Assembly (NCBI GenBank): GCA_018062825.1
Contig: JAGORL010000003.1
Span: 1,058 to 65,057, forward strand
Direction of reading: 5' to 3'
DNA from: Patescibacteria group bacterium
GTDB lineage: Bacteria > Patescibacteriota > Patescibacteriia > UBA9934
Length of the DNA: 64,000 nt
Positions 1-57,073 of the stretch are shown here, piece by piece (within the stretch, counting starts at the first letter, position 1; each line of letters opens with the position of its first letter). Under the pieces are notes generated by a model. The model searched no databases. It was given only the letters and a program-made list of their open reading frames with translations, and was not told the DNA's origin. A program made the translations under genes and the position numbers.

Positions 1-3000
1 TAGTGGAGTTGTAGCGATACATTCGATCACGAATGAAGTCGATTGCGTACATACCCGTACCTGACGACCCGTTTGTACCAACGTAGACAACGCCATTAAA
101 CGCTGCAACGCCTGATGGATCATTGTTTGTGTTTGCACCAAGAGCGTAGGTGCCATCTTGCGTAAAGCGCATCCAGAGCTCGTGTGAGTTTGCGTCGATA
201 ATGTATAGCTCGGAATCGGTGGTTGCGATAATGGCAATTTGTGGGAATTGACTCTTTCCACAGCGATCATCAGTTAAAACACAGTCATCATCATCGCCGT
301 CATCTTTTGCTTCTGTGTACCAGCTGGTAACTTGCGCCTTTGATGATTTTGTCCAATCTCCCGCGTCACTATCTTTTGTCGTGTCGTAAATAATAATATC
401 GTTGATGCCTGTAATTCCCTTTTCGATCACGTATCCCTTCAAGTCAATGTCGCCATGGACATTGATATTGCCACGATCGGTCTCACTTCCGACCTCAAGT
501 AAATCCGTTGGTGCTGCATTATTGATACCGACACTTCCTCCGGAGAAAAGGGCTGCATACTCAGTACCTGATCCAGAGCCAGCCTCGACCTTCAAACCAA
601 CGCTCGTGACATTACTTAATGATCCGGTGCCACCAGAAACATTTAAGCCATTCCAAGTACAGGCACCTGTTGTACAGGCGGTGAGCGTAGGGGTATCGAT
701 ATTGATACCGTTGATGGTCTTTGTACCGGCTCCTGAGGTGTTAATGGTCGACTCGATATCAAGACCACTAGTAACGCCATCATTGTTGGCATTTGTGGAG
801 GCATCGGTGAAGGTGATCTTCATGGCCTGGCCAACTTCACTAGCTGCGGTATGCACAAACGTTGCACCGCCAACCTGCATGATCGTTCCGGAGGTCATAG
901 CCGTGCCGCCGGTTACCGAAAGACCGGTTGTTGAAGTAATCGTTGACCAATCAAGGCTCTGCACCGTGGCGCCCATGGCAATTGCCCCGTTTCCTGATGG
1001 ATCGTTAATCGTATCCCAAGCAGCTGAACCACCGGAGATATCTGAGAGGAAGGCGACCGTACCGGAAGCATTCTGGAAGGTGATAGTGCGGTCAGCGGTT
1101 GGGTCTGTGATTGCGAAGGTGGTTTCATTCGCATCAGAAGTCACACCTTCGAATACGAATGGTGAAGCGCCTTGAATGCCGGCGTTGAGGGTGAAGGTAT
1201 CGGTAGCTGTATCGTTACCAAGGATAGTGCTGCCGTCGGTTGTCACTGAACCAAGACCCGTGACGTCGCCCGTGACTGAGATGTCCCAATCTGAAGAATC
1301 GATAGCAATCGTGTCACCATTGTCACCAAGCACTATCTGGCCATTGGCAGTAAGCGTCGAACCGTTCGCGATCGTCGTACTACCGTTCAAAGAAATCGCT
1401 CCGGTACCGGTTGAAAATGCTGCGGATCCCGTTTGTGTAAACGTGCCATCCATCGTTAAGGATCCGATGCCGGTTACATCACCGATCGCTGAGATGTCCC
1501 AGTCTGAAGAATTGATCGCAACGGTGTCGCCATTGTCACCGAGAGTTACGGTGCCGTTCGCTACGAATGCTGAACCGCTTGCAACGGTAGTTGCGCCGTT
1601 AAGCGAGATCGCTCCGGTACCGGTTGAGAAGGTAGTAGCGCCGGACTGGGTGAGGTTACCGTCCATGGTAATTGCACCGATACCGGTCAAGGCACCTGAT
1701 AGGGAGATATCCCAATCAGCGGTATTGATCGACGCAGTATCCGAGCCGTCACCAAGGGTAAAGTTATCTTGCACTGTAACGTTTCCAATGAATGTGAAAT
1801 CTGGAGTTGTGGCCGCAGTACCAAAGACTATAGCCTCTGCGCCATTGGTGGTATTGATGTTAATATAGTTATTTGTTCCCTCTTGGATATCTAGGGCATT
1901 CGTAACATTGTCTGTCAGGTTAGGAGAGATGGTGTCCGTAAGGAAGGCAACGGTGCCGCTGGCGTTCTGGAAGGTGATGGTATTGTCGGCGGTCGGGTCT
2001 GTAATAGCGAAAGCTGTTTCGTTGGCATCGACGCTGGCACCCTCAAAGGTGAGCGGAGAGGCACCAAGGAATGTAGCGTTGATCGCAATCGTATCCGCGC
2101 TATTGCTACCGAGCACTGTATTGCCATCAACCGCGAGATCAGCGGTTGTGTAGATAGTTCCTCCACTTGAGATTTCCCAAGCTGGGGAAATAATCTCAAT
2201 CGCAGCAGTTGAACCATCAAGCGTTATGCTGCCGACTGCGTCAAAGCTACCACTCGCTGTTAACAAGCCGGTAACAGTGGTGGCTCCGGTACCCAAGAAT
2301 GTGTAGGTAGGGTTGGTTGTGGCATTACCGAAAGAGATGTTCTCTGAACTATTTGTAGTATTAATGTTGAAGTAATTATTTGTTCCCTCCTGGATATCTA
2401 GGGCGTTTGCGGTGTTATCGGTAAGCGTTGACGACAGGGTGTCTGTTAAGAAAGCTACCGTACCAGACGCATTCTGGAAGGTGATGGTGCGGTCAGCTGT
2501 CGGATCCGTGATTGCGAAGGTGGTCTCCGACGTGTCGGCCGTAGCACCCTCAAATACGAAAGGTGAGGCACCCTGAATACCGGCATTGAGGGTGAAGGTG
2601 TCAGTTGCGGAGTCGTTACCGAGCGTCGTGTTGCCGTCGGTCGTGACTGAACCGAGACCCGTTGCATCACCGGTAGCCGAAATGTCCCAATCGCTTGAGT
2701 TGATAGCCACCGTATCACCGTTGTCACCAAGCGTTACCTGGCCGTTCGCGACAAGAGCACCGTTTGTGGTCGTCGTACCAGTGACCGTCAAAGCACCAGC
2801 GAATGAGGTTGCGCCGGTACCAAGGAATGCAAATGTTGGGTTTGTCGTGGCGTTACCAAAGGAGATGTTCTCAGAAGCATTCGTCGTGTTGATGTTCAAG
2901 TAGTTGTTTGTTCCCTCTTGCAAGTCGTAGGCGTCAGCTGTGTTGTCGGTGAGGGATGAAGCGAGAATATCTGCCAAGAATGCCACCGTACCAGACGCAT

Positions 3001-6000
3001 TCTGGAAGGTGATGGTGCGGTCAGCTGTCGGATCCGTGATTGCGAAGGTGGTCTCCGACGTGTCGGCCGTAGCACCCTCAAATACGAAAGGTGAAGCACC
3101 CTGAATACCGGCATTGAGGGTGAAGGTGTCAGTTGCGGAGTCGTTACCGAGCGTCGTGTTGCCGTCGGTCGTGACTGAACCGAGACCCGTTGCATCACCG
3201 GTAGCCGAAATGTCCCAATCGCTTGAGTTGATAGCTACCGTGTCACCGTTGTCGCCGAGCGTTACCTGACCGTTCGCAACAAGAGCGCCATTAGTCGTGG
3301 TGGTACCCGTAACAGTTACCGTGCTGCCAGCGGTTACTGCGCCGTTAAGCGATACTGCACCCGTGCCGGTAGCGAATGTGGTAGCACCTGACTGGGTGAA
3401 GTTACCATCGAGGGCGATAGAACCGAGACCAGTAGCGTCGCCAGTTGCTGAAATGTCCCAGTCTGACGAGTTGATAGCGACCGTCGAAGAACCGTTGCCA
3501 AGCGTTGTCGCTCCGGTTGAGCTTAGGGTTGTGAAAGCACCGGTTGAAGCAGAGCTTGCGCCGATTGCCGTGCCGTCGATATTTCCTCCGTTGATATCAA
3601 CTGTTGTTGCAGTAAGAGTTCCGGAGTCGGTGAGTTCACCGAGTGTGATTCCGCCATCGAGAACGTTGAGCTCTGCTCCTGAAATGAGAATGCCCTGATT
3701 TTCAATAATGTTAACAAACGTACCCCCTGCGTCAATAATTCTGATAGCTGTGCCAACGGCGTCATCGGTGTCAGAATTATCTAACGTAAGCAAGGAATCA
3801 ACACCTTCGGTAGAAGCAGCGTTATCGACATACAATGCAGACTGCTGTGTGGTTGCACTACCGGTATCACTACCCACTGCCTCGATATGTACACCTCTTT
3901 CTGCAACGCCATTTGTCATGGTGCGAGCAAAAGTAATCGTTCTACCAGCAGCACCCGTCACCGTGAAAACCCCATCCAACGTGCCGCTGTCTGTAATCTT
4001 GTCAAAATTTATTGTGTCATTTGTTAGATCGGCGTTATCAATGTTGGTAATTGAATTACCGCTTCCGTTGGCATCAAAGGCTACACCGGTGATCGTGCCG
4101 GTAGCATCAATATCCCAATCACTGGAGTTGATAGCCACCGTGTCACCATTGTCCCCGAGCGTTACCTGACCGTTCGCGACAAGAGCACCATTAGTCGTAG
4201 TGGTACCTGTAACAGTTACCGTGCTACCAGCGGTTACTGCACCGTTAAGTGATACTGCACCCGTGCCGGTAGCAAATGTCGTTGCGCCAGACTGGGTGAA
4301 GTTACCATCAAGCGCGATAGAACCAAGACCAGAGGCATCACCGGTAGCAGAGATGTCCCAGTCTGACGAGTTGATAGCAACAGTATCGCCACCGTCACCA
4401 AGCGTGACCTGACCGTTAGCAGCAAGAGCGCCATTGGTGGTGGTCGTGCCAGTGACTGTTAACGCACCAGCGAATGAGGTTGCGCCGGTACCAAGGAAGG
4501 CGAAAGTAGGATTCGTGGTTGCGTTACCAAACGAGATGTTCTCCGAGGCATTGGTCGTATTAATGTTCAAGTAGTTGTTTGTTCCCTCTTGAAGATCGTA
4601 GGCGTCAGCTGTGTTGTCGGTGAGTGATGAAGCAAGGATGTCGGCCAAGAAAGCGACCGTACCAGAAGCATTTTGGAAGGTGATCGTGCGGTCAGCTGTC
4701 GGGTCTGTGATAGCGAAGGTGGCCTCCGACGTGTCGGCCGTAGCACCCTCAAATACGAAAGGTGAGGCACCTTGAATGCCGGCGTTGAGGGTGAAGGTGT
4801 CAGTTGCGGAGTCGTTACCAAGGGTGGTGTTACCATCCGTTGTTACTGCGCCGAGGCCAGTGACGTCGCCGGTAGCGGAGATGTCCCAATCTGAGGAGTT
4901 GATAGCAACCGTATCTCCATTGTCACCAAGTGTCACAGCGCCATTAGCGACAAGAGCGCCGTTCGTGGTCGTCGTACCGGTCACCGTTACTGTGCTACCA
5001 GCTGTTACCGCACCGTTCAAGGAAACTGCACCGGTACCGGTAGCAAAAGTGGTGGCACCTGACTGAGTGAAGTTGCCATCAAGGGCGATCGAGCCGAGAC
5101 CAGAAGCGTCGCCAGTTGCTGAAATGTCCCAGTCTGACGAGTTGATAGCAACCGTATCGCCGCCATCGCCGAGGGTAACCTGACCGTTTGCGGCAAGAGC
5201 ACCATTGGTGGTGGTCGTGCCGGTGACTGTTAACGCACCAGCGAATGAGGTTGCGCCGGTACCGAGGAAGGCGAAACTTGGGTTCGTGGTGGCGTTACCA
5301 AAGGAGATGTTCTCACTGGCGTTTGTCGTGTTGATGTTCAAGTAGTTGTTTGTTCCCTCTTGAAGATCATAGGCATCTGTCGTGTTGTCGGTTAAATCTG
5401 TACCAGCAATGTCAGTAAGGAAAGCGACGGTTCCGCTCGCGTCCTGGAAGGTAATCGTACGGTCAGCGGTTGGATCTGTGATGGCAAAGGTGGTCTCCGA
5501 CGTGTCGGCTGTTGCGCCCTCAAACGTGAATGGCGAAGCGCCCTGAACGGTGGCGTCCAAGGTGAAAGTATCTGTAGCTGCATCACCGATTGTAGCGTTG
5601 CCATCGGTTGTGATAGCACCAATACCTGTAACATCACCTGTTGCGGAAATGTCCCAGTCGCTGGAGTTGATTGCTACCGTGTCACCGTTGTCGCCGAGCG
5701 TTACCTGACCGTTTGCGGCAAGAGCACCGTTCGTGGTCGTGGTACCGGTGACAGTTACCGTGCTGCCAGCGGTTACTGCGCCGTTAAGCGACACCGCTCC
5801 CGTGCCGGTAGCGAATGTGGTAGCACCTGACTGGGTGAAGTTACCATCGAGGGCGATAGAACCGAGACCAGTAGCGTCGCCAGTTGCTGAAATGTCCCAG
5901 TCTGACGAGTTGATAGCAACCGTCGAAGAACCGTTGCCAAGCGTTGTCGCTCCGGTTGAGCTTAGGGTTGTGAAAGCACCGGTTGAAGCAGAGCTTGCGC

Positions 6001-9000
6001 CGATTGCCGTGCCGTCGATATTTCCTCCGTTGATATCAACTGTTGTTGCAGTCAGCGTTCCGGAGTCGGTGAGTTCACCGAGTGTGATTCCGCCATCGAG
6101 AACGTTGAGCTCTGCTCCTGAAATGAGAATGCCAGCGTTATCAAAGATGTTCACGAGTGTTCCACCGGCATCCACGATTTTGATAGCAGCTCCAACTGAA
6201 TCATCAGTGTCTGAGTTATCAAGTACCACAAAGGCATCCAAGCCTTCCGTAGAGGCTACGTTATCGATATAGAGACCGAATTGGTTGGTGGTTCCTGATC
6301 CTGTATCACTTGCGGTTACACCAAGAGTAAAACCATTCTCAGTGGTGTTGTTGGTGAGCAACCTATTGATGGTGATCGTTTCACCCGCGGTACCAATCAG
6401 GCTCAAAGCACTATCCAGCGCCATTGCATCAGCAAATTCAGTAAAATCGAATTCGTCATTTGCTATATCTGATGCTTGAATGGTGCCAGCAGCGATATCT
6501 GCACTAACGATTGTGCTATTCACAATGTCCGCACTTTCGATGTTCGTAATTGAGTTGCCAGCGCCATTAGCATCAAAGGCTACTCCTGTTATCGCGCCCG
6601 TAGCATCAATATCCCAATCACTTGAGTTGATTGCAACAGTATCTCCATTGTCGCCGAGAGTGACTGCGCCGTTTGCGACAAATGCAGAACCGTTTGCAAC
6701 GGTCGTTGCACCGTTAAGTGATACTGCACCCGTGCCGGTTGCAAATGTCGTTGCGCCAGACTGAGTGAAGTTACCGTCGAGAGCAATGGAACCAAGGCCA
6801 GAGGCGTCACCAGTTGCGGAGATGTCCCAATCCGAGGAATTGATGGCAACCGTGTCGCCACCGTCACCAAGCGTGACCTGACCGTTAGCAGCAAGAGCGC
6901 CATTGGTGGTGGTCGTGCCTGTGACCGTCAAAGCACCAGCGAATGAAGTGGCGCCGGTACCAAGGAATGCGAAGGTTGGATTGGTCGTGGCGTTACCGAA
7001 TGAGATGTTCTCAGAAGCATTCGTCGTGTTGATGTTCAAGTAGTTATTGCTTCCCTCTTGAAGATCGTAAGCGTCAGCTGTGTTATCGGTGAGGGATGAA
7101 GCAAGAATATCTGCCAAGAAAGCGACGGTGCCAGAAGCATTCTGGAAAGTGATTGTACGGTCAGCTGTCGGGTCTGTGATGGCAAATGTCGTTTCTGAGG
7201 TGTCGGCAGTTGCACCCTCAAATACGAAAGGTGAGGCACCTTGAATGCCGGCGTTGAGGGTGAAGGTGTCGGTGGCTGTGTCGTTACCAAGAGTCGTATT
7301 ACCGTCGGTTGTGACTGCGCCAAGACCTGTAACATCACCTGTTGCTGAGATGTCCCAATCTGAAGAGTTGATTGCAACAGTATCTCCGTTGTCGCCGAGT
7401 GTGACGGTGCCGTTTGCGACAAATGCAGAACCATTCGCAACGGTTGTTGCGCCGTTAAGTGACACCGCGCCTGTACCAGTTGATAGATCTACAGCCCCCA
7501 GTTGAATGATATCGCCAGCAATTGAAGCTGGCCCTTGCAGATCTAGCTCTTGAAGATCGAATATTCCCGAACTTGAATAATTTACTCCTGAGCCCAAAAT
7601 TTCTATTGCAGCTGATGGGTTGCCGATAAATATGTCGCCAGTCGATGTGCCGGCACCGATGAAAACACTCGCGCTACCGTCATTATTAATGTTGACGTCA
7701 CTACCTGAAATCGTTGCCCCGGCGGTAGCTGTCAACAGACCGTTCATGGAAATAGTACCGATTCCGGTCAAGTCACCTGTTGCTGAAATGTCCCAATCTG
7801 ATGAGTTGATAGCCACCGTATCGCCACCGTCACCAAGAGTTACGGCGCCGTTGGCAACGAATGCTGAACCGTTCGCAACCGTAGTTGGACCATTAAGTGA
7901 TACCGTGCCAGTACCAGTCGAGAATGTCGTAGCACCAGACTGGGTGAAATTACCATCAAGCGCGATCGAGCCGAGACCAGAAGCATCACCGGTTGCGGAG
8001 ATGTCCCAATCGCTGGAGTTAATAGCGACTGTATCGCCACCGTCACCAAGCGTGACCTGACCGTTAGCAGCAAGAGCGCCATTGGTGGTCGTAGTGCCGG
8101 TGACCGTCAACGCACCAGCGAATGAAGTTGCGCCGGTACCAAGGAATGCGAAAGTAGGATTCGTGGTGGCGTTACCAAAGGAGATGTTCTCAGAAGCATT
8201 CGTCGTGTTGATGTTGAGGTAATTATTGCTTCCCTCTTGCAAGTCGTAAGCGTTGGCCGTGTTGTCGGTGAGGGATGAAGCGAGGATGTCGGCCAAGAAA
8301 GCGACGGTGCCAGAAGCGTTCTGGAAGGTGATGGTGCGATCTGCGGTAGGATCCGTGATCGCGAAGGTGGTCTCTGACGTGTCGGCTGTTGCACCTTCGA
8401 ATACGAAAGGTGAAGCACCTTGAATGCCGGCATTGAGGGTGAAGGTGTCGGTAGCTGCGTCGTTACCAAGGGTGGTGTTACCGTCGGTTGTGACTGCACC
8501 AAGACCGGTTACATCACCTGTTGCTGAGATGTCCCAATCGCTTGAGTTGATAGCGACCGTGTCACCGTTGTCGCCGAGCGTTACTTGGCCGTTTGCTGCA
8601 AGAGCGCCGTTTGTGGTCGTCGTACCAGTGACTGTTACTGTGCTACCAGCTGTTACCGCACCGTTCAAGGAAACCGCGCCAGTACCGGTAGCGAAGGTGG
8701 TTGCACCGGACTGGGTGAAGTTACCATCAAGCGCGATCGAACCAAGACCGGAAGCGTCACCTGTTGCTGAAATATCCCAGTCTGAAGAATTGATGGCAAC
8801 CGTATCGCCGCCGTCACCGAGCGTGACCTGGCCATTTGCCGCAAGAGCACCGTTCGTAGTCGTGGTACCCGTGACCGTCAAAGCACCAGCGAATGAGGTT
8901 GCGCCGGTACCAAGGAATGCGAAAGTAGGATTCGTGGTGGCGTTACCAAAGGAGATGTTCTCAGAAGCATTCGTCGTGTTGATGTTGAGGTAATTATTGC

Positions 9001-12000: not shown

Positions 12001-15000
12001 TACCCGTGACCGTCAAAGCACCAGCGAATGAGGTTGCGCCGGTACCAAGGAAGGCGAAACTTGGGTTCGTGGTTGAGTTACCAAAGGAGATGTTCTCACT
12101 CGCATTGGTCGTATTAATGTTCAAGTAGTTATTACTTCCCTCTTGAAGATCGTAGGCGTCAGCTGTGTTGTCGGTGAGGGATGAGGCGAGGATGTCAGCA
12201 AGGAAGGCAACGGTGCCGCTGGCGTTCTGGAAGGTGATGGTGCGGTCTGCGGTTGGGTCTGTAATGGCAAAGGTCGTTTCTGAGGTGTCGGCGGTTGCAC
12301 CTTCAAACGTGAATGGTGAAGCACCCTGAACAGTGGAGTTCAAGGTAAAGGTATCCGTAGCTGCGTCACCGATCGTAGCGTTGCCATCGGTTGTTACTGC
12401 GCCGAGGCCAGTGACGTCGCCGGTAGCGGAGATGTCCCAATCTGAGGAGTTGATAGCCACCGTGTCACCGTTGTCGCCGAGCGTTACCTGACCGTTCGCG
12501 ACAAGAGTACCGTTTGTGGTCGTCGTACCGGTCACTGTTACTGTGCTGCCAGCAGTTACGGCACCGTTCAAGGAGACTGCGCCAGTACCAGTAGCAAAAG
12601 TGGTAGCACCTGACTGAGTGAAGTTACCGTCAAGCGCGATCGAGCCGAGACCAGAAGCGTCGCCAGTTGCGGAGATGTCCCAATCCGAGGAATTGATGGC
12701 AACCGTGTCGCCACCGTCACCCAAAGTAACGGTGCCATTAGCAGTAAGAGCACCGTTCGTGGTCGTGGTACCAGTGACCGTCAAAGCACCAGCGAACGAG
12801 GTTGCGCCGGTACCGAGGAATGCGAAGGTTGGATTGGTCGTGGCGTTACCAAAGGAGATGTTCTCGGAAGCATCAGTTGTGTTGATGTTCAAGTAGTTGT
12901 TGCTTCCCTCTTGAAGATCGTAGGCATCTGCTGTGTTGTCAGTGAGAGATGAGGCGAGGATGTCGGCCAAGAAAGCGACCGTACCAGAAGCGTTCTGGAA
13001 GGTGATCGTGCGGTCAGCTGTTGGATCTGTGATTGCGAAGGTGGTCTCTGAGGTGTCGGCCGTGGCACCCTCAAATACGAAAGGTGAGGCACCTTGAATG
13101 CCGGCATTGAGCGCGAAGGTATCAGTTGCAGAATCGTTACCAAGGGTGGTGTTACCGTCGGTCGTGACTGAACCGAGGCCAGTCACATCACCTGTTGCTG
13201 AGATGTCCCAATCTGAAGAGTTGATAGCTACCGTGCCAGAACCGCCACCAATAGAGACCGCTCCGTTAGAGGTGCCGGTATTGATGTTTGTCGCAAAGTT
13301 GCTGCTTGCATTCAAGTTGATAGCAGCACCAGAGAGTGTTGCGCCAGCCGTGCCGGTCAAAAGGCCGTCCATCGTAACTGCTCCAAGGCCGGTTGCGTCA
13401 CCCGTGGTCGAAATATCCCAATCTGAGGAGTTGATTGCAACCGTTTCTCCGTTGTCACCAAGCGCTACCTGACCATTTGCCGTTAGCGTACCCGCCAAAG
13501 TCAATCCACCACCGGAAGTGAAATCGGTTCCAGCGTCGCCAATGTTAACAATGAGGTTACTCAAGGCATCGATTGTGCCAGTGTCGCTAATTGTTAAACG
13601 AGTTACGCTATCGGTTTCAAAAGATAGTGCAAATGCATCATTAGTTCCAAGTACCGCCTCTGCTCCAAACGTATTTCCGTCCTGGATGAAAGCGGTTGCG
13701 CCCGTTACGCAGGTTGCACATGAGATGTCGCCTGCTGCGGAAAGGGAGATTGGTCCAGAAGCTGAAACTGCAAAGGTTCCGGAGGCGTTAGGAATGTTGA
13801 TTGTGCGATCAGCTGTCGGATCAACAACGGAAAGCGTTGTTTCATTCGTATCTGCCGTAGCGCCCTCAAAAGTGAACGGTGAAGCACCCTGAACGGTGGC
13901 GTTCAAGGTGAAAGTATCTGTAGCTGCGTCACCAATTGTAGCGTTGCCGTCGGTCGTGATAGCGCCGATACCTGTGACGTCGCCTGTTGCTGAGATGTCC
14001 CAATCTGAGGAGTTGATAGCAACCGTATCTCCATTGTCACCCAGTGTCACAGCGCCATTAGCGACAAGAGCGCCGTTTGTGGTCGTCGTACCGGTCACCG
14101 TTACTGTGCTGCCAGCTGTTACCGCGCCGTTAAGCGATACTGCACCGGTACCGGTAGCGAATGTGGTGGCTCCGGACTGAGTGAAGTTGCCATCAAGGGC
14201 GATAGAACCGAGACCGGAAGCATCACCGGTTGCGGAGATGTCCCAATCTGAAGAGTTGATCGCGACTGTATCGCCACCGTCACCAAGCGTGACCTGGCCA
14301 TTTGCGGCAAGAGAACCGTTTGTGGTCGTGGTACCAGTGACTGTTAGCGCACCCGCCATTGAGGTCAAACCGGAACCTAAGAACGCAAACGTTGGGTTTG
14401 TGGTGGCATTACCAAAGGAGATGTTCTCAGACGCATTCGTCGTGTTGATGTTCAAGTAGTTGTTTGTTCCCTCTTGGAGATCGTAGGCATCTGTCGTGTT
14501 GTCGGTGAGTGATGAGGCGAGGATGTCGGCCAAGAAAGCGACCGTACCAGAAGCGTTCTGGAAGGTGATCGTGCGGTCTGCGGTAGGATCCGTGATCGCG
14601 AAGGTGGTCTCTGAAGTGTCGGCCGTAGCGCCCTCAAACGTGAATGGCGAAGCACCCTGAACAGTGGAGTTCAAGGTGAAAGTATCCGTAGCTGCGTCAC
14701 CGATCGTAGCGTTGCCGTCCGTTGTTACTGCACCAAGACCTGTGACGTCGCCGGTAGCGGAGATGTCCCAATCTGAGGAGTTGATAGCCACGGTATCACC
14801 GTTGTCACCAAGTGTTACCTGACCGTTCGCGACAAGAGCGCCATTTGTGGTCGTCGTACCGGTCACCGTTACTGTGCTACCAGCTGTTACCGCACCGTTC
14901 AAGGAAACTGCACCGGTACCGGTAGCAAACGTGGTGGCACCTGACTGAGTAAAGTTACCATCGAGTGCGATTGAACCGAGACCGGAAGCGTCGCCAGTTG

Positions 15001-18000
15001 CTGAAATGTCCCAGTCGGAAGAATTGATAGCAACAGTATCACCGCCATCACCGAGAGTGACCTGGCCATTAGCAGCAAGGGTGCCATTCGTGGTCGTCGT
15101 ACCAGTGACTGTTAACGCACCAGCAAACGAGGTCGCACCGGTACCGAGGAAGGCGAAACTTGGGTTTGTGGTGGCGTTTCCAAAGGAGATGTTCTCGGAA
15201 GCATCGGTTGTGTTGATGTTCAAGTAGTTATTACTTCCCTCTTGCAAGTCGTAGGCGTCAGCTGTGTTATCGGTGAGTGATGAGGCGAGGATGTCAGCCA
15301 AGAATGCGACCGTACCAGAAGCGTTCTGGAAGGTGATCGTGCGATCTGCAGTTGGATCTGTGATGGCAAAAGTTGTTTCTGAGCCATCAGCGGTTGCACC
15401 CTCAAACGTGAATGGTGAAGCACCCTGAACGGTGGAGTTCAAGGTGAAAGTATCCGTAGCTGCGTCACCGATTGTAGCGTTGCCGTCGGTCGTGATAGCG
15501 CCGAGGCCAGTGACGTCGCCGGTAGCGGAGATGTCCCAATCTGAGGAGTTGATAGCCACCGTGTCACCATTGTCACCAAGTGTGACTGTGCCGTTCGCGA
15601 CAAGAGCACCATTAGTCGTAGTGGTACCTGTAACAGTTACCGTGCTACCAGCGGTTACTGCACCATTAAGTGATACCGCACCGGTACCGGTAGCGAACGT
15701 GGTAGCACCTGACTGGGTGAAGTTACCGTCAAGCGCGATAGAACCAAGACCAGAGGCGTCGCCGGTAGCGGAGATGTCCCAATCTGAGGAGTTGATCGCG
15801 ACTGTGTCGCCACCGTCACCGAGAGTAACCTGACCGTTAGCAGCAAGAGCACCATTGGTCGTGGTCGTACCGGTAACGGTTAAGGTAGTAAGCGCACTTA
15901 ATGCACCACTTACTGCGAGGGTTCCTGAGATTGTTTGATTGCCGGTTAATGTGAGTTCAGCTGCGGTGACATCTAAGTTACCGGTGGCGTCAGATGCAAG
16001 GGTGACATCTGTACCACCGGAAGAGTAGAGGGTAACAAGACCGTTTGCAGCGCTATCCGTACCTACATATAAAGCTGCCGCAGATTCATCGAAGTACAAG
16101 GAAGCGCCAGCGATCGTAGTGTCACCGATGACGAAGTCGTCAGTTGTTGAGGTGAGGTATGTAAAGGCTCCAGCATCCGTCCACTTGGAAGAACCAGACG
16201 CGAGGCCGGTAATAACAGTATCAAGATCGTCTAAGACATCCTGAACATTGCCGCTATTTGAGTTGTCGAACTCGTCGAAGGTGCCAACAAGAGAAGCGCC
16301 GGAATCAGCATTACTCGTTCCAACGTCTGAGAGGTCGATAGCACCAATGGTAAGGGATGTAACGGTAGCGTCACCACCTGCAGTCACTCCCCAATCCGTT
16401 GAGTCGATAACAACAGCATTTGAACCGCTACCAATCGTTACCGTTCCGTTAGAGGTGCCAGTATTGATGTTAGTTGCGAAGTTGCTGCTAGCGTTCAAGT
16501 TAATGGCAGCACCAGAAAGCGCTGCACCAGCAGTGCCGGTCAACAAACCATCCATGGTGATCGTTCCAATACCAGAGGCATTACCGGTAGCAGAGATATC
16601 CCAGTCTGACGAGTTGATAGCAACAGTATCGCCACCATCACCAAGCGTGACCTGACCGTTAGCAGCAAGGGCGCCATTGGTGGTGGTCGTACCTGTGACT
16701 GTTAACGCACCAGCAAACGAGGTCGCACCGGTACCGAGGAAGGCGAAACTTGGGTTTGTGGTGGCGTTTCCAAAGGAGATGTTCTCCGAGGCGTCTGTAG
16801 TATTAACGTTAATGTAATTATTTGTTCCCTCTTGGAGGTCGTAGGCGTCAGTGACGTTATCGGTTAAATCTGTACCAGCAATGTCAGTAAGGAAAGCGAC
16901 GGTTCCACTCGCGTCCTGGAATGTAATCGTACGGTCAGATGTTGGGTCAGTAATTGAGAACGTTGTTTCCGAGCCATCAGCGGTACCGCCCTCAAACGTG
17001 AATGGCGAAGCACCCTGAACGGTAGCATTCAAGGTGAAGGTATCTGCAGCTGCGTCACCAATTGTAGCGTTGCCATCGGTTGTGACTGAGCCAAGACCTG
17101 TAACATCACCTGTTGCTGAGATGTCCCAATCTGAGGAGTTGATAGCCACGGTATCACCGTTGTCACCAAGTGTTACCTGACCGTTCGCGACAAGAGCGCC
17201 GTTTGTGGTCGTCGTACCGGTGACCGTTACTGTACTGCCAGCGGTTACTGCGCCGTTAAGCGACACCGCTCCCGTGCCGGTAGCGAATGTGGTAGCACCT
17301 GACTGAGTGAAGTTACCATCAAGTGCGATTGAACCAAGGCCAGTAGCATCACCTGTTGCTGAAATGTCCCAGTCGGAAGAATTGATAGCGACCGTGTCGC
17401 CGCCGTCACCGAGGGTAACCTGACCGTTAGCAGCAAGAGCGCCATTGGTGGTGGTCGTGCCGGTGACTGTGAGTGCCCCTGCCATTGAGGTCAAACCTGA
17501 ACCTAAGAATGCAAACGTTGGGTTTGTCGTGGCGTTACCAAAGGAGATGTTCTCCGAGGCGTTTGTCGTGTTGATGTTCAAGTAGTTATTGCTTCCCTCT
17601 TGAAGATCGTAAGCGTCAGTCGTGTTGTCGGTGAGTGATGAAGCAAGGATGTCGGCCAAGAAAGCGACCGTACCAGAAGCATTTTGGAAAGTGATTGTGC
17701 GGTCAGCTGTCGGGTCTGTGATGGCAAAAGTTGTCTCCGACGTGTCGGCCGTAGCACCCTCAAATACGAAAGGTGAAGCACCTTGGATGCCGGCGTTAAG
17801 CGTGAAGGTGTCGGTAGCTGCGTCGTTACCAAGGGTAGTGTTGCCGTCCGTTGTGACTGCGCCGAGGCCAGTGACGTCGCCGGTAGCGGAGATGTCCCAA
17901 TCGCTCGAGTTGACCGCGACGGTATCGCCACCGTCACCAAGAGTTACGGCGCCGTTTGCGACAAATGCAGAGCCGTTCGCAACCGTAGTTGCACCATTAA

Positions 18001-21000
18001 GTGATACCGCGCCAGTACCAGTCGAGAATGTAGTAGCACCGGACTGGGTGAAATTACCATCAAGCGCGATAGAACCAAGACCAGAAGCATCACCGGTTGC
18101 GGAGATGTCCCAGTCTGAAGAATTGATGGCAACCGTGTCGCCATTGTCACCGAGCGTTACTTGGCCGTTTGCCGCAAGAGCACCGTTTGTCGTGGTCGTA
18201 CCGGTAACCGTCAAAGCACCAGCGAATGAGGTTGCGCCGGTACCAAGGAAGGCGAAACTTGGGTTCGTGGTGGCGTTACCAAAGGAGATGTTTTCGCTCG
18301 CATTCGTCGTGTTGATGTTCAAGTAGTTGTTTGTTCCCTCTTGAAGATCGTAAGCGTCAGTCGTGTTGTCGGTGAGTGATGAAGCAAGGATGTCGGCCAA
18401 GAAAGCGACCGTACCAGAAGCATTTTGGAAAGTGATTGTGCGGTCAGCTGTCGGGTCTGTGATGGCAAAAGTTGTCTCCGACGTGTCGGCCGTAGCACCC
18501 TCAAATACGAAAGGTGAAGCACCTTGGATGCCGGCGTTAAGCGTGAAGGTGTCAGTTGCGGAGTCGTTACCAAGGGTGGTGTTGCCATCGGTCGTGATAG
18601 CGCCGACACCTGTGATGTCACCAGTTGCGGAAATATCCCAATCGCTTGAGTTGATAACTACCGTGTCACCATTGTCACCAAGTGTGACTGTGCCGTTTGC
18701 GACAAGAGCGCCGTTTGTGGTCGTCGTACCAGTGACCGTTACTGTGCTGCCAGCTGTTACCGCGCCGTTAAGCGATACTGCACCGGTACCGGTAGCGAAT
18801 GTGGTGGCTCCGGACTGAGTGAAGTTGCCATCAAGCGCGATTGAACCAAGACCGGAAGCGTCGCCGGTTGCGGAGATGTCCCAATCCGAGGAATTGATGG
18901 CAACCGTGTCGCCGCCGTCACCTAGCGTGACCTGGCCATTAGCGGCAAGGGCGCCATTGGTGGTCGTCGTACCAGTGACGGTTAAGGTAGTAAGCGCACT
19001 TAATGCACCACTTACTGCGAGGGTTCCTGAAATCGTCTGACTGCCCGTTAATGTAAGTTCTGCTGCGGTGACATCTAAGTTACCGGAGGCGTCAGATGCA
19101 AGGGTGACATCTGTACCACCGGAAGAGTAGAGGGTAACAAGACCGTTTGCAGCACTGTCGGTACCTACATATAAAGCTGCCGCAGATTCATCGAAGTACA
19201 AGGAAGCGCCAGCGATCGTAGTGTCACCGATGACGAAGTCGTCAGTTGTTGAGGTGAGGTATGTAAAGGCTCCAGCATCCGTCCACTTGGAAGAACCAGA
19301 CGCGAGGCCGGTAATAACAGTATCAAGATCGTCTAAGACATCCTGAACATTGCCGCTATTTGAGTTGTCGAACTCGTCGAAGGTGCCAACAAGAGAAGCG
19401 CCGGAATCGGCATTGCTCGTTCCGACATCTGACAAATCAATCGCACCGATCGTGAGAGACGTGACTGTGGCGTCACCACCAGAGGTAATTCCCCAGTCAG
19501 TCGAGTCGATAACAACGGAGTTTGAACCACTACCAATCGTCACCGTGCCGTTAGAGGTGCCGGTATTGATGTTGGTTGCGAAGTTGCTGCTAGCGTTCAA
19601 GTTGATGGCCGCACCGGAAAGTGTTGCACCAGCAGTGCCGGTCAACAAACCATCCATGGTGATCGTTCCAATACCAGAAGCGTTACCGGTTGCTGAAATG
19701 TCCCAGTCTGACGAGTTGATCGCGACTGTGTCTCCACCATCACCAAGCGTGACCTGACCGTTTGCCGCAAGAGCACCATTTGTGGTGGTCGTACCGGTAA
19801 CCGTCAAAGCACCAGCGAACGAGGTTGCGCCGGTACCGAGGAATGCGAAGGTTGGATTGGTCGTGGCGTTACCAAAGGAGATGCTCTCAGAAGCATTCGT
19901 CGTGTTGATGTTCAAGTAGTTATTGCTTCCCTCTTGAAGATCGTAGGCGTCTGCTGTGTTGTCCGTTAAATCTGTACCAGCAATGTCAGTAAGGAAAGCG
20001 ACGGTTCCACTCGCGTCCTGGAATGTAATCGTACGGTCAGATGTTGGGTCAGTAATTGAGAACGTTGTTTCCGAACCATCAGCGGTTGCGCCCTCAAACG
20101 TGAATGGCGAAGCACCCTGAACAGTGGAGTTCAAGGTGAAGGTATCTGCAGCTGCGTCACCGATCGTAGCGTTGCCATCGGTTGTGATAGCACCAATGCC
20201 TGTGACGTCGCCTGTTGCGGAAATATCCCAATCGCTTGAGTTAACCGCGACGGTATCGCCACCGTCACCAAGAGTTACGGTGCCGTTTGCTACGAAGGCA
20301 GAGCCGTTAGCAACGGTTGTTGCACCGTTAAGTGATACTGCACCGGTACCGGTAGCAAACGTAGTAGCACCTGACTGAGTAAAGTTACCGTCGAGTGCGA
20401 TAGAACCAAGACCAGAGACATCGCCGGTTGCTGAAATGTCCCAGTCTGAAGAATTGATGGCAACCGTATCGCCGCCGTCACCGAGAGTGACCTGACCGTT
20501 TGCCGTAAGAGCACCATTTGTGGTCGTCGTACCAGTGACCGTCAAAGCACCAGCGAATGAAGTTGCGCCGGTACCAAGGAATGCAAATGTTGGGTTCGTG
20601 GTGGCGTTACCGAAGGAGATGTTCTCAGATGCATCGGTTGTGTTGATGTTCAAGTAGTTGTTTGTTCCCTCTTGCAAGTCGTAGGCGTCAGCTGTGTTAT
20701 CTGTTAACACCGAACTTGCCAGATCAGACAAGAAAGCGACCGTACCAGAAGCGTTCTGGAAGGTGATGGTGCGGTCTGCGGTAGGATCCGTGATCGCGAA
20801 GGTGGTTTCTGAAGTGTCGGCAGTGCTGCCCTCAAACGTGAATGGCGAAGCACCCTGAATGGTGGCGTTCAAGGTGAAAGTGTCTGTCGCGGAATCGTTA
20901 CCAAGGGTGGTGTTACCGTCGGTCGTGATTGAACCGAGGCCCGTTGCATCACCGGTAGCCGAAATGTCCCAATCGCTCGAGTTAACTGTGACAGTATCGC

Positions 21001-22318
21001 CGCCATCGCCGAGAGTGACGGCGCCGTTTGCTACGAAGGCAGAGCCGTTTGCGACCGTGGTTGCGCCGTTAAGCGACACTGCGCCTGTACCGGTTGAAAA
21101 GGAAGTAGCACCGGACTGCGTAAAATTACCATTCATTGAGATGGCACCAAGACCAGTGGCGTCACCGGTTGCGGAAATGTCCCAGTCACTTGAATTGATT
21201 GCGACTGTGTCGCCATTGTCGCCGAGAGTTACCTGGCCATTGGCAGCAAAAACTCCGTTTGCGGTGGTTGTACCAGTGATATTCAATGCAGCAAGAGCAT
21301 TCAATGCACCGCTCACCGCAAGCGATCCAGAAATGGTTTGATTACCAGATAATGTGAGTTCAGCTGCGCTTACATCAAGATTTCCCGAGGCGTCCGCACC
21401 GAGAGTGACGTCATTGCCACCTGAGGAGTACAGCGTCAAAAGACCGTCGGCAGAACTATCTGTACCAAGATAGAGCGTTGAGGCGGATTCATCAAAGTAC
21501 AAGGAGGCTCCAGCGATTGTGGTGTCACCAAGGACAAGATCATCGGTCGCAGAAGTGAGGTATGTAAACGTGCCATCATCGGTCCATTTTGAACCGCCAG
21601 CACCGATCGCTGAATCAAGATCGTCTAGGATGTCTTGCAGGTTTGTGCTGCTAGAATTGGTAAATTCATCAAATACTCCAATGAGTGCTGCACCTGAGGT
21701 AACAGAACTTACACCAACTGCATCAAGCAAAATGCCATCGATCTCCACGGATCCAACATCTACCCCGCCAGACATGACTAGATTGCCACCGGTTAGGACT
21801 GGGATATCGGATCCGGTAGGTGTTTGTGACGGCGTGAAGCCGCCAAGGGTGTTGGCGTTGATTGCGTAACCGGAGGATGTGATGCGCTGACGCGGGGAAA
21901 GGGTTTCAAAAGTGACGCCAACACAAGAGCCTGCAACTTGAGCAGCGATTTCGGTATTGAGGTAAATCTCATCCGTAGATTCGAAATCGAAATCGAGTAC
22001 ATCTCCCCCAGCTCCAGTATCACCGATGCCGATATTGAAGACGCCGTACACGACCTCAGCGGTCATGGTGCTTGGAGAACCAGCTGGCCAGACTTTTACA
22101 TCGCCACCACCCGGAGCTGCGTCATCGTAGAAAGAGAAACGGAAACAGTAATCTGTACCCGATCCGCCAAGCAAATTATTTGAGGCATCGAGTAGGCGGC
22201 CTTGGTGTTCAATAATAGTCGGAGCACCTGTTGCGGCAACAGCAAACGGAACACCTTGAAAAAAGGGTCCTCCGATAGTCGACATGAACACGAAAATTGC
22301 AATGATGCGCCGCAGCAT
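1..22318 (-). CDS. giant tandem-repeat cell-surface protein (partial; at least 7,439 aa in window; C-terminus lies beyond the window start)
   Basis: The ATG at 22318 is directly preceded by an in-frame TAA at 22319-22321. The translation begins [31 protein letters not shown], a signal peptide or TM anchor, followed by an N-terminal domain [11 protein letters not shown]...[18 protein letters not shown]. The reading frame (first codon base at position congruent to 1 mod 3) was checked and is the same at 22318, 20230, 15535, 8533 and 1285. No in-frame minus-strand stops occur in 1-400. Typical repeat translations are [47 protein letters not shown] and [42 protein letters not shown]. Every minus-strand ORF the track lists here is in frame 0, none in frame 1, which fits a single open frame running off the edge. 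The ORF is absent from the track, presumably because there is no stop in the window. Confidence 0.8.
1200..21600 (-). repeat. nested in-frame tandem coding repeats: a ~768-bp (~256-aa) unit in at least 18 copies, some expanded to 1.56-1.7 kb by an extra ~0.8-kb module; each unit contains 2-3 sub-repeats of ~80 aa built around ..[16 protein letters not shown]..
   Basis: The plus-strand marker ttccctcttg (antisense of ..QEGTNNY..) recurs at about 1876, 2921, 4582, 5353, 7061, 8231, 9001, 9772, 10543, 12137, 12905, 14468, 15235, 16827, 17593, 18333, 19926 and 20664, plus a variant at about 2391. The intervals are about 770 bp or about 1,590 bp. The motif gatgtcccaatc recurs roughly every 240-270 bp. 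Copies are imperfect, about 85-95% identical by eye. Confidence 0.85.
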
Positions 22319-22354: not shown

Positions 22355-22368
22355 CAATTATATCACCC
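22355..22368 (-). promoter_or_regulatory. candidate extended -10 promoter (TGaTATAAT) for the giant gene
   Basis: The minus strand reads ggTGaTATAATtgcagtg about 35 nt upstream of the ATG at 22318. There is no clear -35 element and no obvious Shine-Dalgarno sequence. Confidence 0.4.
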
Positions 22369-22400
22369 GCGCAACACCATGAGTAACTTTTGGTCTCAGG

Positions 22401-57071: not shown

Positions 57072-57073
57072 AT

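Follow-up and report, generated by a model that had tools for sequence, protein, structure and literature searches.

On the minus strand of a 64,000-nt stretch of a Patescibacteria chromosome (hereafter the window), a frame of more than 22 kb is one real, native, very large protein-coding gene, and we put a probability of roughly 0.6 on its product being a secreted cell-surface adhesion fibre built in the manner of Bdellovibrio's mosaic adhesive trimer (MAT) fibres, with trimerisation, surface location and ligand all presumptive. The combination of a MAT-like start with phage-fibre-like repeats most likely makes a very long fibre that catches or holds a host cell.

The reading frame and its upstream signals

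The first-pass annotation described a single stop-free minus-strand frame across positions 1-22318, and this proved correct: no stop interrupts the 7,439 codons between ATG 22318 and the left edge of the window, compared with 125-637 in the remaining five frames over the same span, and the probability of a stop-free run this long, by base composition, is ~1e-153. An in-frame TAA lies immediately 5' of the ATG. The gene is indeed unlisted in the ORF track, as had been noted, but for the simple reason that ORFs leaving the window are not listed there. The encoded part of the protein amounts to ~731 kDa with a pI of ~4.05; it contains 775 Asp+Glu versus 55 Lys+Arg (net charge ~-720), is rich in T, G, A, S, D and N, and is depleted in Lys, Arg and Cys. 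Its full-length product is at least 7,439 aa and probably ~7,900-8,700 aa. The gene sits directly downstream of rpoB-rpoC-ruvC in a window that also carries the housekeeping genes recA, ftsK and efp.

A promoter-like site ~40 nt 5' of the ATG can be read from the sequence as TTACTC (22386-22381), an 18-nt spacer and an extended -10, TGATATAAT (22365-22357). It is missing from the consensus promoter scan because its -35 is weak, and no clear Shine-Dalgarno precedes ATG 22318. Transcription would probably proceed from this extended -10 promoter of the gene's own. The N-terminal signal or anchor sequence proposed earlier corresponds to the sole strongly hydrophobic 19-aa stretch of the whole product (aa 5-23), which is consistent with a signal peptide comprising MLRR, a hydrophobic core and AVA followed by ATGAP, as predicted from hydrophobicity and homologue layout: 52 homologues share a hydrophobic N-terminus, approximately A-x-A / A-[TA]-G-[VA]-P, and then the conserved domain. 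The product would be exported via Sec and cleaved following AVA(28).

Table 1. Features of the giant gene and its product, in window coordinates.
Feature	Residues (aa)	Position (nt)	Strand	Remarks
Promoter-like site		22357..22386	-	inferred from sequence
Giant protein, partial CDS	1-7439	2..22318	-	ATG 22318; 3' end past left window edge
Signal peptide (predicted)	1-28	22235..22318	-	
Conserved head domain	~31-190	21749..22228	-	motifs QGRLLD..LLGG.GT.YCF.FS.YD, ..LWP, ..GDT.AGGD
Neck segment	~205-354	21257..21706	-	contains LYFDES; recurs as second half of each 274-aa module
Repeat stalk	355-7090	1049..21256	-	~6,700 aa; alternating A and B modules and inserts
274-aa module, copy 1	848-1121	18956..19777	-	one arm of 248-nt exact repeat, at ~19160
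274-aa module, copy 2	1882-2155	15854..16675	-	other arm of 248-nt exact repeat
194-aa module	2749-2942	13493..14074	-	single-copy; truncated B module and unique tail
274-aa module, copy 3	3445-3718	11165..11986	-	
146-aa module	4818-4963	7430..7867	-	single-copy
239-aa module	5211-5449	5972..6688	-	related to 219-aa module
219-aa module	6044-6262	3533..4189	-	paralogue of 239-aa module
396-aa composite module	6520-6915	1574..2761	-	two diverged B-type cores
Start of conserved C-terminal module	~7091-7439	2..1048	-	non-repeat; cut by window edge

A modular stalk between conserved ends

The stalk alternates A modules of 71 or 81 aa with B modules of 175/176 aa, every stalk module opening with a ~45-aa box, so that the tandem units of ~256 aa described in the first pass are A+B pairs of ~247-257 aa (16 clean pairs, and 21 B-type cores). 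The recurring motifs reported there are also present (NSSDWDIS n=44, SDWD n=47, DLQEG[TS]NNY n=19). Added to these are a 274-aa module in three copies and five inserts found once or twice each, in the assembled order a B a B 274 A B a B A B 274 A B A B A 194 a B A B 274 and then A B A B A B A B a 146 B a 239 A B A B A 219 A B 396 a, the final 'a' being followed by one last B-like core. The extra insert of ~270 aa noted previously is the 274-aa module, whose copies begin at aa 848, 1882 and 3445. The second half of this module is a duplicate of the N-terminal neck, and the claimed hierarchy is therefore real, as was the general picture of a secreted protein with hierarchical repeats. The motif FDEF[TD]NS marks the neck and its three duplicates, at aa 216, 980, 2014 and 3577. 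An AlphaFold2 model of two repeat units had a pLDDT of 43, and the beta-helix, Ig-like and beta-propeller folds suggested in the first pass are conjectural.

The original estimate of 85-95% identity between repeats at the DNA level overshoots. In pairwise DNA comparisons, B modules are 72-89% identical (median 81%) and 81-aa A modules 73-96% (median 83%), against 86-98% and 85-100%, respectively, in protein. With dN of 0.03-0.05 and dS of 0.85-0.9 (dN/dS 0.02-0.08), the repeats are old paralogues under strong purifying selection: modules near-identical in protein yet diverged at synonymous sites must each be individually constrained. At sites of identical residue the same codon is used at a frequency of 0.56-0.62, versus 0.36-0.39 after codon shuffling.

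The last ~350 aa in the window are non-repeat and have homologues elsewhere, in agreement with the switch to a different sequence seen near the window edge in the first pass. Seven homologous fragments of the start of this C-terminal module were found, and relatives are present in 14 metagenome loci at 50-64% identity; in loci where the ORF meets a stop, the module runs 1,270-1,410 aa further. Laminin_G_3 falls within it in nine of ten relatives scanned (best E=4.6e-19). Judging from these relatives, the giant's own LamG domain and C-terminus would lie beyond the window. The family as a whole is mosaic: heads and C-terminal modules are conserved, but the A/B stalk is present in only two of 94 related loci.

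The head, ~120-160 aa and beginning right behind the hydrophobic signal sequence, is the most conserved part of the protein family, and we are confident that its fold is a beta-sandwich. Its family is large, with N-terminal placement of the head in proteins of up to 5,948 aa and members in Patescibacteria lineages. A second member, a 2,049-aa paralogue, is encoded in the window itself; the two share the head and differ at the C-terminus.

Comparison with known fibres and adhesins

The first-pass annotation held that no function could be assigned from sequence; function can nevertheless be narrowed by way of the MAT-like head, the phage-fibre B core and LamG in relatives. MATs have been described in Bdellovibrio bacteriovorus as well as in other predators (Caulton et al. 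2024, Nat Microbiol; PMC10769870). Their signal peptide is followed by a conserved N-domain, beta-rich and ~130 aa long, and then by a trimeric stalk of the phage type with exchangeable adhesive tips. The NCBIfam model of their N-domain, Bdello_MAT_N (NF053851), matches 34 of 52 members of the head family (best E=9.7e-10), the 2,049-aa paralogue at E=9e-5 and the giant's own head at E=0.017, and these matches are colinear, beginning immediately past the signal peptide. All scores are far below the curated cut-off of 60 bits, which places the head family outside the Bdellovibrio subfamily; given this and the E-value of the giant head, homology to Bdello_MAT_N can be proposed only as weak, remote and transitive.

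Beyond this weak but recurrent similarity, the resemblance extends to the overall plan. In both, the signal peptide leads straight into a conserved, beta-rich N-domain (~130 aa, no specific PDB homologue), behind which comes a long phage-tail-fibre-like stalk, one end being conserved and the remainder mosaic or swappable; adhesive or lectin-type domains lie in the C-terminal part (here LamG, from relatives), several family members occur per genome (two in this window alone), and the organisms that make these proteins live on other bacteria. The two also differ. MATs are ~400-1,900 aa long rather than at least 7,439 aa, and the regular A/B module array of the giant's stalk is not seen in them; neither S74 nor TNF-like nor C-type-lectin tips were seen here, relatives instead carrying the ~1,300-aa LamG-bearing module; and the giant is made by a member of the Patescibacteria, which are expected to be without an outer membrane. 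The MAT taxa of Supplementary Table S3 (PMC10769870) do not include Patescibacteria.

A likeness to phage fibres is seen in the B core (unit positions ~140-186): over 1,000 proteins with lengths of ~400-450 aa carry repeats 70-80% identical to it, and these proteins match PHROG tail-fibre and baseplate families. The 21 B cores are 40-80% identical to this ~45-aa repeat (..FEGATAD..ETT...), whose families include PHROG 38058 'tail fiber protein', 8215 'baseplate wedge initiator' and 692, and which is carried by Pelagibacter phages (such as HTVC008M, Kolga and Mosig) in genes annotated as tail fibre and baseplate, and by a hypothetical protein of cyanophage SS120-1. The 194-aa module weakly matches phrog_8215 (E=0.0016), and the end motif of the 239-aa module recurs in phage-like fibre proteins such as P0107. 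In phages, however, the repeats stand head to tail in 400-450-aa proteins, whereas in the giant they occur once per 176-aa module between lineage-specific flanks, in a cellular gene with a signal peptide and housekeeping surroundings.

Other giant adhesins, whether RTX/T1SS (LapA, SiiE, MpIBP) or Gram-positive Ebh/Bap-type, are likewise very large, acidic and extracellular, with a tandem-repeat stalk, terminal binding domains and often broken assemblies. The present protein differs in its N-terminal Sec signal, and no RTX repeats, BIg, cadherin, FIVAR, T1SS signal or LPXTG were found in it. Repeats of such adhesins are usually near-identical in DNA, while those of the giant are ~81% identical in DNA yet ~93-97% in protein. 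Closer in taxonomy are the large signal-peptide- or TM-bearing proteins of Patescibacteria, of up to 4,163 aa in Vampirococcus lugosii (PMC8080830) and above 1,500 aa in Strigamonas methylophilicida (PMC13059738), for which a fibrous surface and host attachment were proposed; those Absconditabacteria proteins are described by generic FN3, integrin, PKD and ConA domains, and neither the present family, with its MAT-like head and phage-fibre repeats, nor such a size was found described in the literature searched.

A proposed adhesion fibre and its alternatives

By analogy with MATs, the head would be the cell-proximal end, docking the fibre onto a component of the producer's own envelope, and the A/B stalk would form a long beta-rich shaft, plausibly trimeric as in phage fibres and MATs since its B modules share the ~45-aa repeat with phage tail fibres. 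Phage fibres and tandem-domain adhesins measure roughly 0.04 nm per residue, a ratio at which the shaft might extend over a few hundred nm, comparable to the cell itself. The C-terminal module would then be the distal tip, binding a host or partner surface, probably glycan, through a LamG/ConA-like lectin domain. Of the guesses offered in the first pass, adhesion is the best-supported reading, and an S-layer role has no supporting domain.

It is unlikely that the protein is instead a general envelope or matrix component (an S-layer-like coat, sheath or matrix fibre) that is structural or protective without specific host recognition. Extreme acidity with depletion of Lys, Arg and Cys is common in extracellular structural proteins, the repeats are highly uniform in protein sequence, and no specific ligand-binding domain was found inside the window. 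Against this, no SLH, other S-layer or wall-binding domains were found, a single ~8,000-aa chain is improbable as a lattice subunit, and a conserved MAT-like head with a variable stalk and a lectin-bearing C-terminal module describes a tip-presenting fibre, not a lattice.

Quite improbable, too, is the opposite polarity, with the C-terminal module wall-anchored and the head distal, or another purpose such as a sibling-cell tether or a phage or predator decoy. The one complete relative examined (in locus L017) ends in a Pro-rich tail resembling the wall-spanning regions of monoderm surface proteins; the tail of the 2,049-aa paralogue is acidic and rich in Glu, Asp, Pro and Val, and the strong conservation of the head is also compatible with a conserved ligand. 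On the other hand, neither a TM helix nor an LPXTG or sortase signal was found at the C-terminus of the L017 relative, the lectin domains are located in the C-terminal module, and for MATs, the one related system that has been characterised, the conserved N-domain was proposed to lie beside the cell surface and the variable C-terminal tips to bind prey (PMC10769870).

We consider it very unlikely that the frame is partly an assembly artefact, with units over-extended or mis-ordered, or a decaying pseudogene, the actual gene being shorter or without function. Contigs assembled from short reads of the same organism do end 1.3-1.5 kb inside the gene, 51 of 80 related genes in species-representative genomes extend past the end of their contig, and exact DNA repeats reach 248 nt. 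Still, repeats at ~81% DNA identity with 97.7% of positions unique at k=151 (2.3% within repeated 151-mers) make assembly feasible, random mis-joins of units differing in length and phase should break the frame somewhere in 7,439 codons, and the dN/dS values indicate selection on the protein. A sister strain that was assembled independently (JGI Ga0558118_07065; rpoC dS 0.068) has the same gene in the same synteny. The unique inserts of the gene keep their order there at 99-100% identity (the 194-aa module served as anchor), and the only difference in length is 153 nt, at position ~21.1 kb. The arrangement of units between the inserts is different, which suggests reshuffling between fixed unique inserts with total length kept. 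Five frame changes across ~3 kb within that gene could be sequencing or assembly errors, or decay in some strains. The risk of recombination and collapse raised in the first pass was overstated for repeats of this divergence, although the contig-end run-off and the mosaic sister strain bear part of it out; taken as a whole, its observation was partly confirmed and its interpretation partly supported.

It is scarcely credible that the gene derives from a phage and encodes, for example, the tail fibre of a prophage or tailocin instead of a surface protein of the cell: the B core and several insert motifs are common to phage tail-fibre and baseplate proteins, but no phage genes lie near the gene and housekeeping genes make up the remainder of the window, synteny is kept in the sister strain, GC3 (0.516) matches that of rpoC (0.52), the head has no relative among 2.9 million viral contigs, and a signal sequence is not expected on a virion tail fibre.

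The reading as a giant adhesion fibre fits with proposals that very large CPR surface proteins are host-attachment factors (PMC8080830, PMC13059738). In this case a tiny symbiotic Patescibacteria bacterium devotes more than 22 kb of its chromosome to one secreted, highly repetitive protein.

The giant gene and its neighbourhood

Translation of the minus strand gives 7,439 sense codons and not one stop from the ATG at 22318 down to nucleotide 2, bearing out the first-pass annotation in its reading of 1-22318 as a single open frame. The remaining five frames hold 125-637 stops over the same span, and the chance of 7,439 codons staying free of stops, estimated from base composition, is ~1e-153. 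An in-frame TAA lies directly before this ATG, so that 22318 is the first possible start. The same annotation described the gene as missed by the ORF track; it is indeed unlisted there, but the sole reason is that the ORF listing omits frames running off the source. Antisense ORFs of 100-257 aa within 1-22318 were considered and rejected as a side effect of the gene's length and its scarcity of stop codons. GC3 is the same as in rpoC (0.516 against 0.52), and the gene is therefore native. The encoded part of the product amounts to 731 kDa with a pI of ~4 (775 Asp+Glu against 55 Lys+Arg; Thr 18%, Gly 13%, Ala 13%), and its sole strongly hydrophobic segment is aa 5-23. No Shine-Dalgarno sequence is visible before the ATG; a candidate promoter is included in the table.

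rpoB, rpoC and ruvC precede the gene on its own strand, and recA, ftsK, efp, a gene of the class II aminoacyl-tRNA synthetase family, ssb, rpsF, ychF, rmuC, holA and polA are found further along. RuvC (MBP9828134.1), RpoC (MBP9828135.1) and EF-P (MBP9828142.1) from the window are NCBI entries of a 'Patescibacteria group bacterium', located on a 197.6-kb contig. A 36-kb JGI contig (Ga0558118_07065) represents a sister strain in which the rpoC-ruvC-giant synteny is kept, with rpoC at dN 0.001 and dS 0.068.

Features of the window other than the giant gene
Feature	Position	Strand	Remarks
Promoter-like TTACTC-18 nt-TGATATAAT (candidate, extended -10)	22357-22386	-	~40 nt upstream of giant ATG, in the 82-nt gap after ruvC
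ORF of 627 aa	30726-32609	-	N-terminal TM helix; between rpoB and Memo-like genes; no Pfam match
Three ORFs of 168-236 aa	42133-43994	+	No Pfam match
Predicted secreted/membrane cluster, first part	45144-47444	-	
Second head-family gene, 2,049 aa	47454-53603	-	Signal peptide and head; 29% identity to giant head, E=1e-11
Predicted secreted/membrane cluster, second part	53584-57994	-	

The conserved head and the comparison with MAT fibres

The giant product begins with a hydrophobic N-terminus (aa 5-28), followed from aa ~31 by a conserved domain, here called the head, that AlphaFold2 models as a beta-sandwich (pLDDT 87-97 over aa 31-150). All 52 aligned homologues have the same arrangement of a signal-like N-terminus and then the conserved domain. 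A word-seeded protein search recovered residues ~31-190 in 51 proteins, nearly all 'partial' and from Patescibacteria, yet no match longer than ~600 aa, though the sister strain's 2,945- and 4,146-aa proteins should score best. The impression that all homologues are partial fragments is thus partly a search bias, in that very long proteins seem to be missed by word-seeded searching. An exhaustive profile search with the head returned 647 representatives of 50%-identity clusters at E<=1e-30 and 3,398 at E<=1e-10, always with an N-terminal match and with proteins of up to 5,948 aa among the best 150. Species-representative genomes hold 188 head relatives, the best 80 of which come from Uhr-, Magasanik-, Nomura-, Pace-, Doudna-, Nealson- and Yanofsky-bacteria and similar lineages; head relatives were absent from the viral contigs searched.

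Mosaic adhesive trimer (MAT) fibres of Bdellovibrio are defined by a signal peptide, a conserved beta-rich N-domain of ~130 aa without a homologue in the PDB, a trimeric phage-like stalk and swappable adhesive tips (PMC10769870). The NCBIfam model of the MAT N-domain (NF053851 Bdello_MAT_N, 'mosaic adhesive trimer family chimeric fiber protein'; curated cut-off 60 bits) detects 34 of 52 aligned members of the family (E<=0.1; best E=9.7e-10), and in every case the match is colinear and begins immediately behind the signal peptide. For the giant head the score is 14.9 bits (E=0.017; aa 134-162 align with model positions 122-153); for the 2,049-aa paralogue it is 22.3 bits (E=9e-5; aa 30-109 align with positions 6-77). 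The giant, the paralogue and all 52 family members fall below the 60-bit cut-off, and the similarity is therefore remote only, placing them outside the Bdellovibrio subfamily; at this distance, homology of the head to the MAT N-domain is suggested. Two features of organization are shared with MATs: the signal peptide stands immediately before a conserved beta-rich N-domain of ~130 aa, and the build is mosaic, with a conserved N-end and exchangeable stalk and C-terminal adhesive domains. Thus the head occurs in at least 647 cluster representatives, while the HMM of the stalk's repeat unit matches just 2 of 94 other family loci and the two head-bearing genes of the window have unrelated C-termini.

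The paralogue ends in an acidic tail rich in Glu, Asp, Pro and Val that has no similarity to the giant's C-terminal region. With two head-bearing genes in the window, the organism therefore has at least two head-bearing fibres that differ in their distal parts. The paralogue is flanked, on the same strand, by predicted secreted and membrane proteins: one of 855 aa with CarboxypepD_reg/PEGA/SdrD_B-like domains, one of 307 aa with a signal peptide and a C-terminal TM helix, a Ser/Ala/Thr/Asp-rich secreted protein of 306 aa, and a multi-TM protein of 766 aa with C-terminal TPR repeats. This cluster may be a surface-structure operon.

Stalk modules, C-terminal module and assembly

We mapped the repeats of the stalk by motif anchoring, their period of ~740-770 nt being above the 500-nt limit of Tandem Repeats Finder. 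An SDWD motif (n=47) marks the start of every module. The dominant modules, A (81 aa; variant a, 71 aa) and B (175/176 aa), alternate as units of 247-257 aa; with the other modules named by their length in residues, the assembled sequence reads a B a B 274 A B a B A B 274 A B A B A 194 a B A B 274 A B A B A B A B a 146 B a 239 A B A B A 219 A B 396 a, after which come a last B-like core and the non-repeat C-terminal region. The giant contains 16 clean A-B pairs, 21 copies of the core DPT[AS]D[RN]TI and 19 of the motif DLQEG. The second half of the 274-aa module (n=3) copies aa ~205-354 of the N-terminal part, as marked by the motif FDEFxNS at aa 216, 980, 2014 and 3577, and the array is therefore truly hierarchical.

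The first-pass annotation put the repeats at 85-95% identity in DNA, which is too high: median pairwise identity is 81% for B (72-89%) and 83% for A (73-96%). At the protein level the medians are 93% for B and 97.5% for A. Nei-Gojobori estimates for paralogous modules are dN 0.03-0.05 and dS 0.85-0.9, with dN/dS of 0.02-0.08. Where two modules share a residue, the codon is the same in 56-62% of pairs, as against 36-39% after shuffling of synonymous codons; synonymous sites are therefore heavily diverged without being fully randomised. The longest exact repeat is 248 nt, and repeated 151-mers cover just 2.3% of positions. The modules are old copies, each individually constrained under strong purifying selection. 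Near-identical DNA repeats are usual in giant adhesins, and the repeats of the giant are unlike that.

In Pfam, PHROGs and NCBIfam, weak matches excepted, neither the head nor the A-B unit had a significant match, nor did the C-terminal 340 aa or modules 274, 146 and 239; PDB sequence searches with the A-B unit and a phage-like relative found nothing meaningful. An AlphaFold2 model of an A-B-A-B monomer is all-beta in secondary structure without a reliable fold (pLDDT 43). Unit positions ~140-186 are the only part with relatives outside the lineage: 3-5 such repeats, at 70-80% identity, occur in each of more than 1,000 proteins measuring ~400-450 aa. The remainder of the A and B modules is lineage-specific. 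The phage-like relatives match PHROG tail-fibre, baseplate and virion families (PHROG 38058, 8215, 692). Among cultured phages the B core is present at 12 places in the 'baseplate wedge initiator' of HTVC008M, and also in the 'tail fiber' of Kolga, the 'putative peptidase S74' of Mosig and a hypothetical protein of cyanophage SS120-1. The giant therefore resembles phage tail fibres in carrying sequence repeats of Pelagibacter phage tail-fibre/baseplate genes, which would speak for a phage gene; unlike those, it has ruvC, rpoC, rpoB, recA, ftsK and efp for neighbours and does not belong to a phage or prophage structural module, leaving a phage origin of the gene as a whole less well supported than a cellular fibre. 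One phage-like relative has an Mtd_N domain, for which reason a diversity-generating retroelement target was considered; the window contains no reverse transcriptase, and the likely target region lies beyond its edge.

The last ~350 aa in the window are non-repeat, with seven fragmentary homologues; fourteen loci in metagenomes, Hainich groundwater among their sources, encode relatives of this C-terminal module at 50-64% identity. In the loci whose ORF closes, the protein extends 1,270-1,410 aa past the counterpart of window aa ~7,304. Exact 50-mers from the window's left edge have no match in genome or metagenome contigs. Gauged by these relatives, the full-length giant would be ~8,700 aa; the last called ORF of the sister strain would end at ~7,920 aa. 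Nine of ten relatives' C-terminal modules contain Laminin_G_3, a ConA-like lectin domain (best E=4.6e-19), and one contains a Kelch motif. One complete relative of 3,459 aa (L017) combines the same head with a different stalk, the C-terminal module and a Pro-rich tail.

That the frame is an assembly artefact or a pseudogene has some observations in its favour. Logan short-read contigs from this organism match the window at 100% identity and end 1.3-1.5 kb into the giant gene. The sister-strain gene undergoes five frame changes within ~3 kb (contig ~14,200-17,300; frames 2, 0, 1, 0, 1, 2, net zero), which split it into ORFs of 2,945, 256, 180, 358 and 4,146 aa and reflect real decay or else local errors of sequencing or assembly within the repeats. 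Its module grammar is the same as that of the window, its single-copy and two-copy inserts (194, 146, 239 and 219 aa) follow in the same order at 99-100% identity, and at position ~21.1 kb the length difference between the two genes amounts to just 153 nt. Many A/B tiles between those anchors are just 85-92% identical, often with a non-syntenic best match, a pattern suggestive of shuffled units or gene conversion, or of one of the two contigs being an assembly chimera. Given the intact frame, the signal of selection and the agreement of the sister strain, a gross artefact is unlikely, and this explanation is less well supported than a genuine gene. The family as a whole systematically breaks metagenome assemblies and is therefore under-annotated. 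Of the best 80 among the 188 head relatives, 51 are cut by a true contig end; 24 reach a stop after 232-3,448 aa, and 5 are still open beyond 3,470 aa. One such gene (P0008; GCA_004297215.1, SCUM01000001.1, locus 10001-11743) runs off a Patescibacteria contig of 842,311 nt, so that this 842-kb contig terminates, at that end, inside a head-family gene.

A probable MAT-type surface fibre

In the best-supported model the giant is a Sec-exported cell-surface fibre of MAT type. The head would sit at the producer's envelope, just as Caulton et al. 2024 (PMC10769870) propose that the MAT N-domain binds the surface of the predator itself; a very long beta-rich A/B stalk, plausibly trimeric, would carry a distal lectin-bearing module that binds a host or partner cell, and one MAT has been shown to bind prey glycans (PMC10769870). 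Export, trimerisation, polarity and ligand are what we infer for the giant; a stalk of the MAT superfamily is a trimeric, intertwined beta-prism or beta-helix, and monomer prediction gives A-B-A-B of the giant an all-beta secondary structure. The model fits published proposals that very large surface proteins serve host attachment in epibionts of the Patescibacteria (CPR) (PMC8080830, PMC13059738).

A structural coat protein is less well supported: a weak PDB sequence match (4qvs, an 'S-layer domain-containing protein'; E=0.0028) lies within the lectin region of relatives, and no SLH, S-layer anchoring or lattice domain was matched in the giant by Pfam or NCBIfam. A fibre of reversed polarity, head outward, is likewise less well supported. 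Sortase-anchored surface proteins of monoderm bacteria end in LPXTG, a hydrophobic helix and a charged tail; in L017, the one complete relative examined, the Pro-rich tail has neither LPXTG nor a TM helix, the giant's own C-terminus being off-window. Compared with RTX/type-1-secreted giant adhesins, the giant differs in its N-terminal Sec-type signal, and no RTX nonapeptide repeats, T1SS signal or BIg-type repeats were matched by Pfam or NCBIfam in the giant or in complete C-terminal modules of relatives.

As a kind of protein, the giant repetitive MAT-type adhesion fibre is already known. The MATs listed outside Bdellovibrio measure 417-1,915 aa and include none from Patescibacteria (PMC10769870); the literature searched for the term holds no use of it concerning CPR bacteria. 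Relative to that literature, what appears new is a large Patescibacteria branch of MAT-type fibres, a member exceeding described MATs seven- to eightfold in length, a stalk formed as a regular array around a phage tail-fibre repeat, and repeats near-identical in protein yet ~19% diverged in DNA. It is tempting to go further and propose that the MAT superfamily has a large undescribed branch which serves the Patescibacteria, as a group, for host recognition, the giant being an extreme form of ~8,000 aa and several hundred nm that would be 'fishing' for hosts, its length set by an array of modules borrowed from phage fibres, and its repeats, identical in protein but different in codons, resisting recombinational collapse yet allowing occasional unit shuffling between strains. 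We would give this wider proposal roughly three chances in ten.

What has been learned of the ways in which the ultra-small, host-dependent Patescibacteria locate and grip a host goes little further than type IV pili and some adhesins in cultured Saccharibacteria. The locus offers a concrete and widespread candidate for host finding (647 cluster representatives at E<=1e-30, 188 relatives among species-representative genomes), with a head resembling the cell-proximal domain of Bdellovibrio prey-recognition fibres and a remainder built of phage tail-fibre parts. Its repeats show that long arrays can stay near-identical in protein while diverging in DNA, a point of importance to assembly, to the study of repeat evolution and to repeat-protein design. 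If the candidate is true, docking of the head to the envelope and binding of host glycans by the C-terminal lectin would be testable targets, and two unrelated groups living on other bacteria would share one cell-recognition fibre system.
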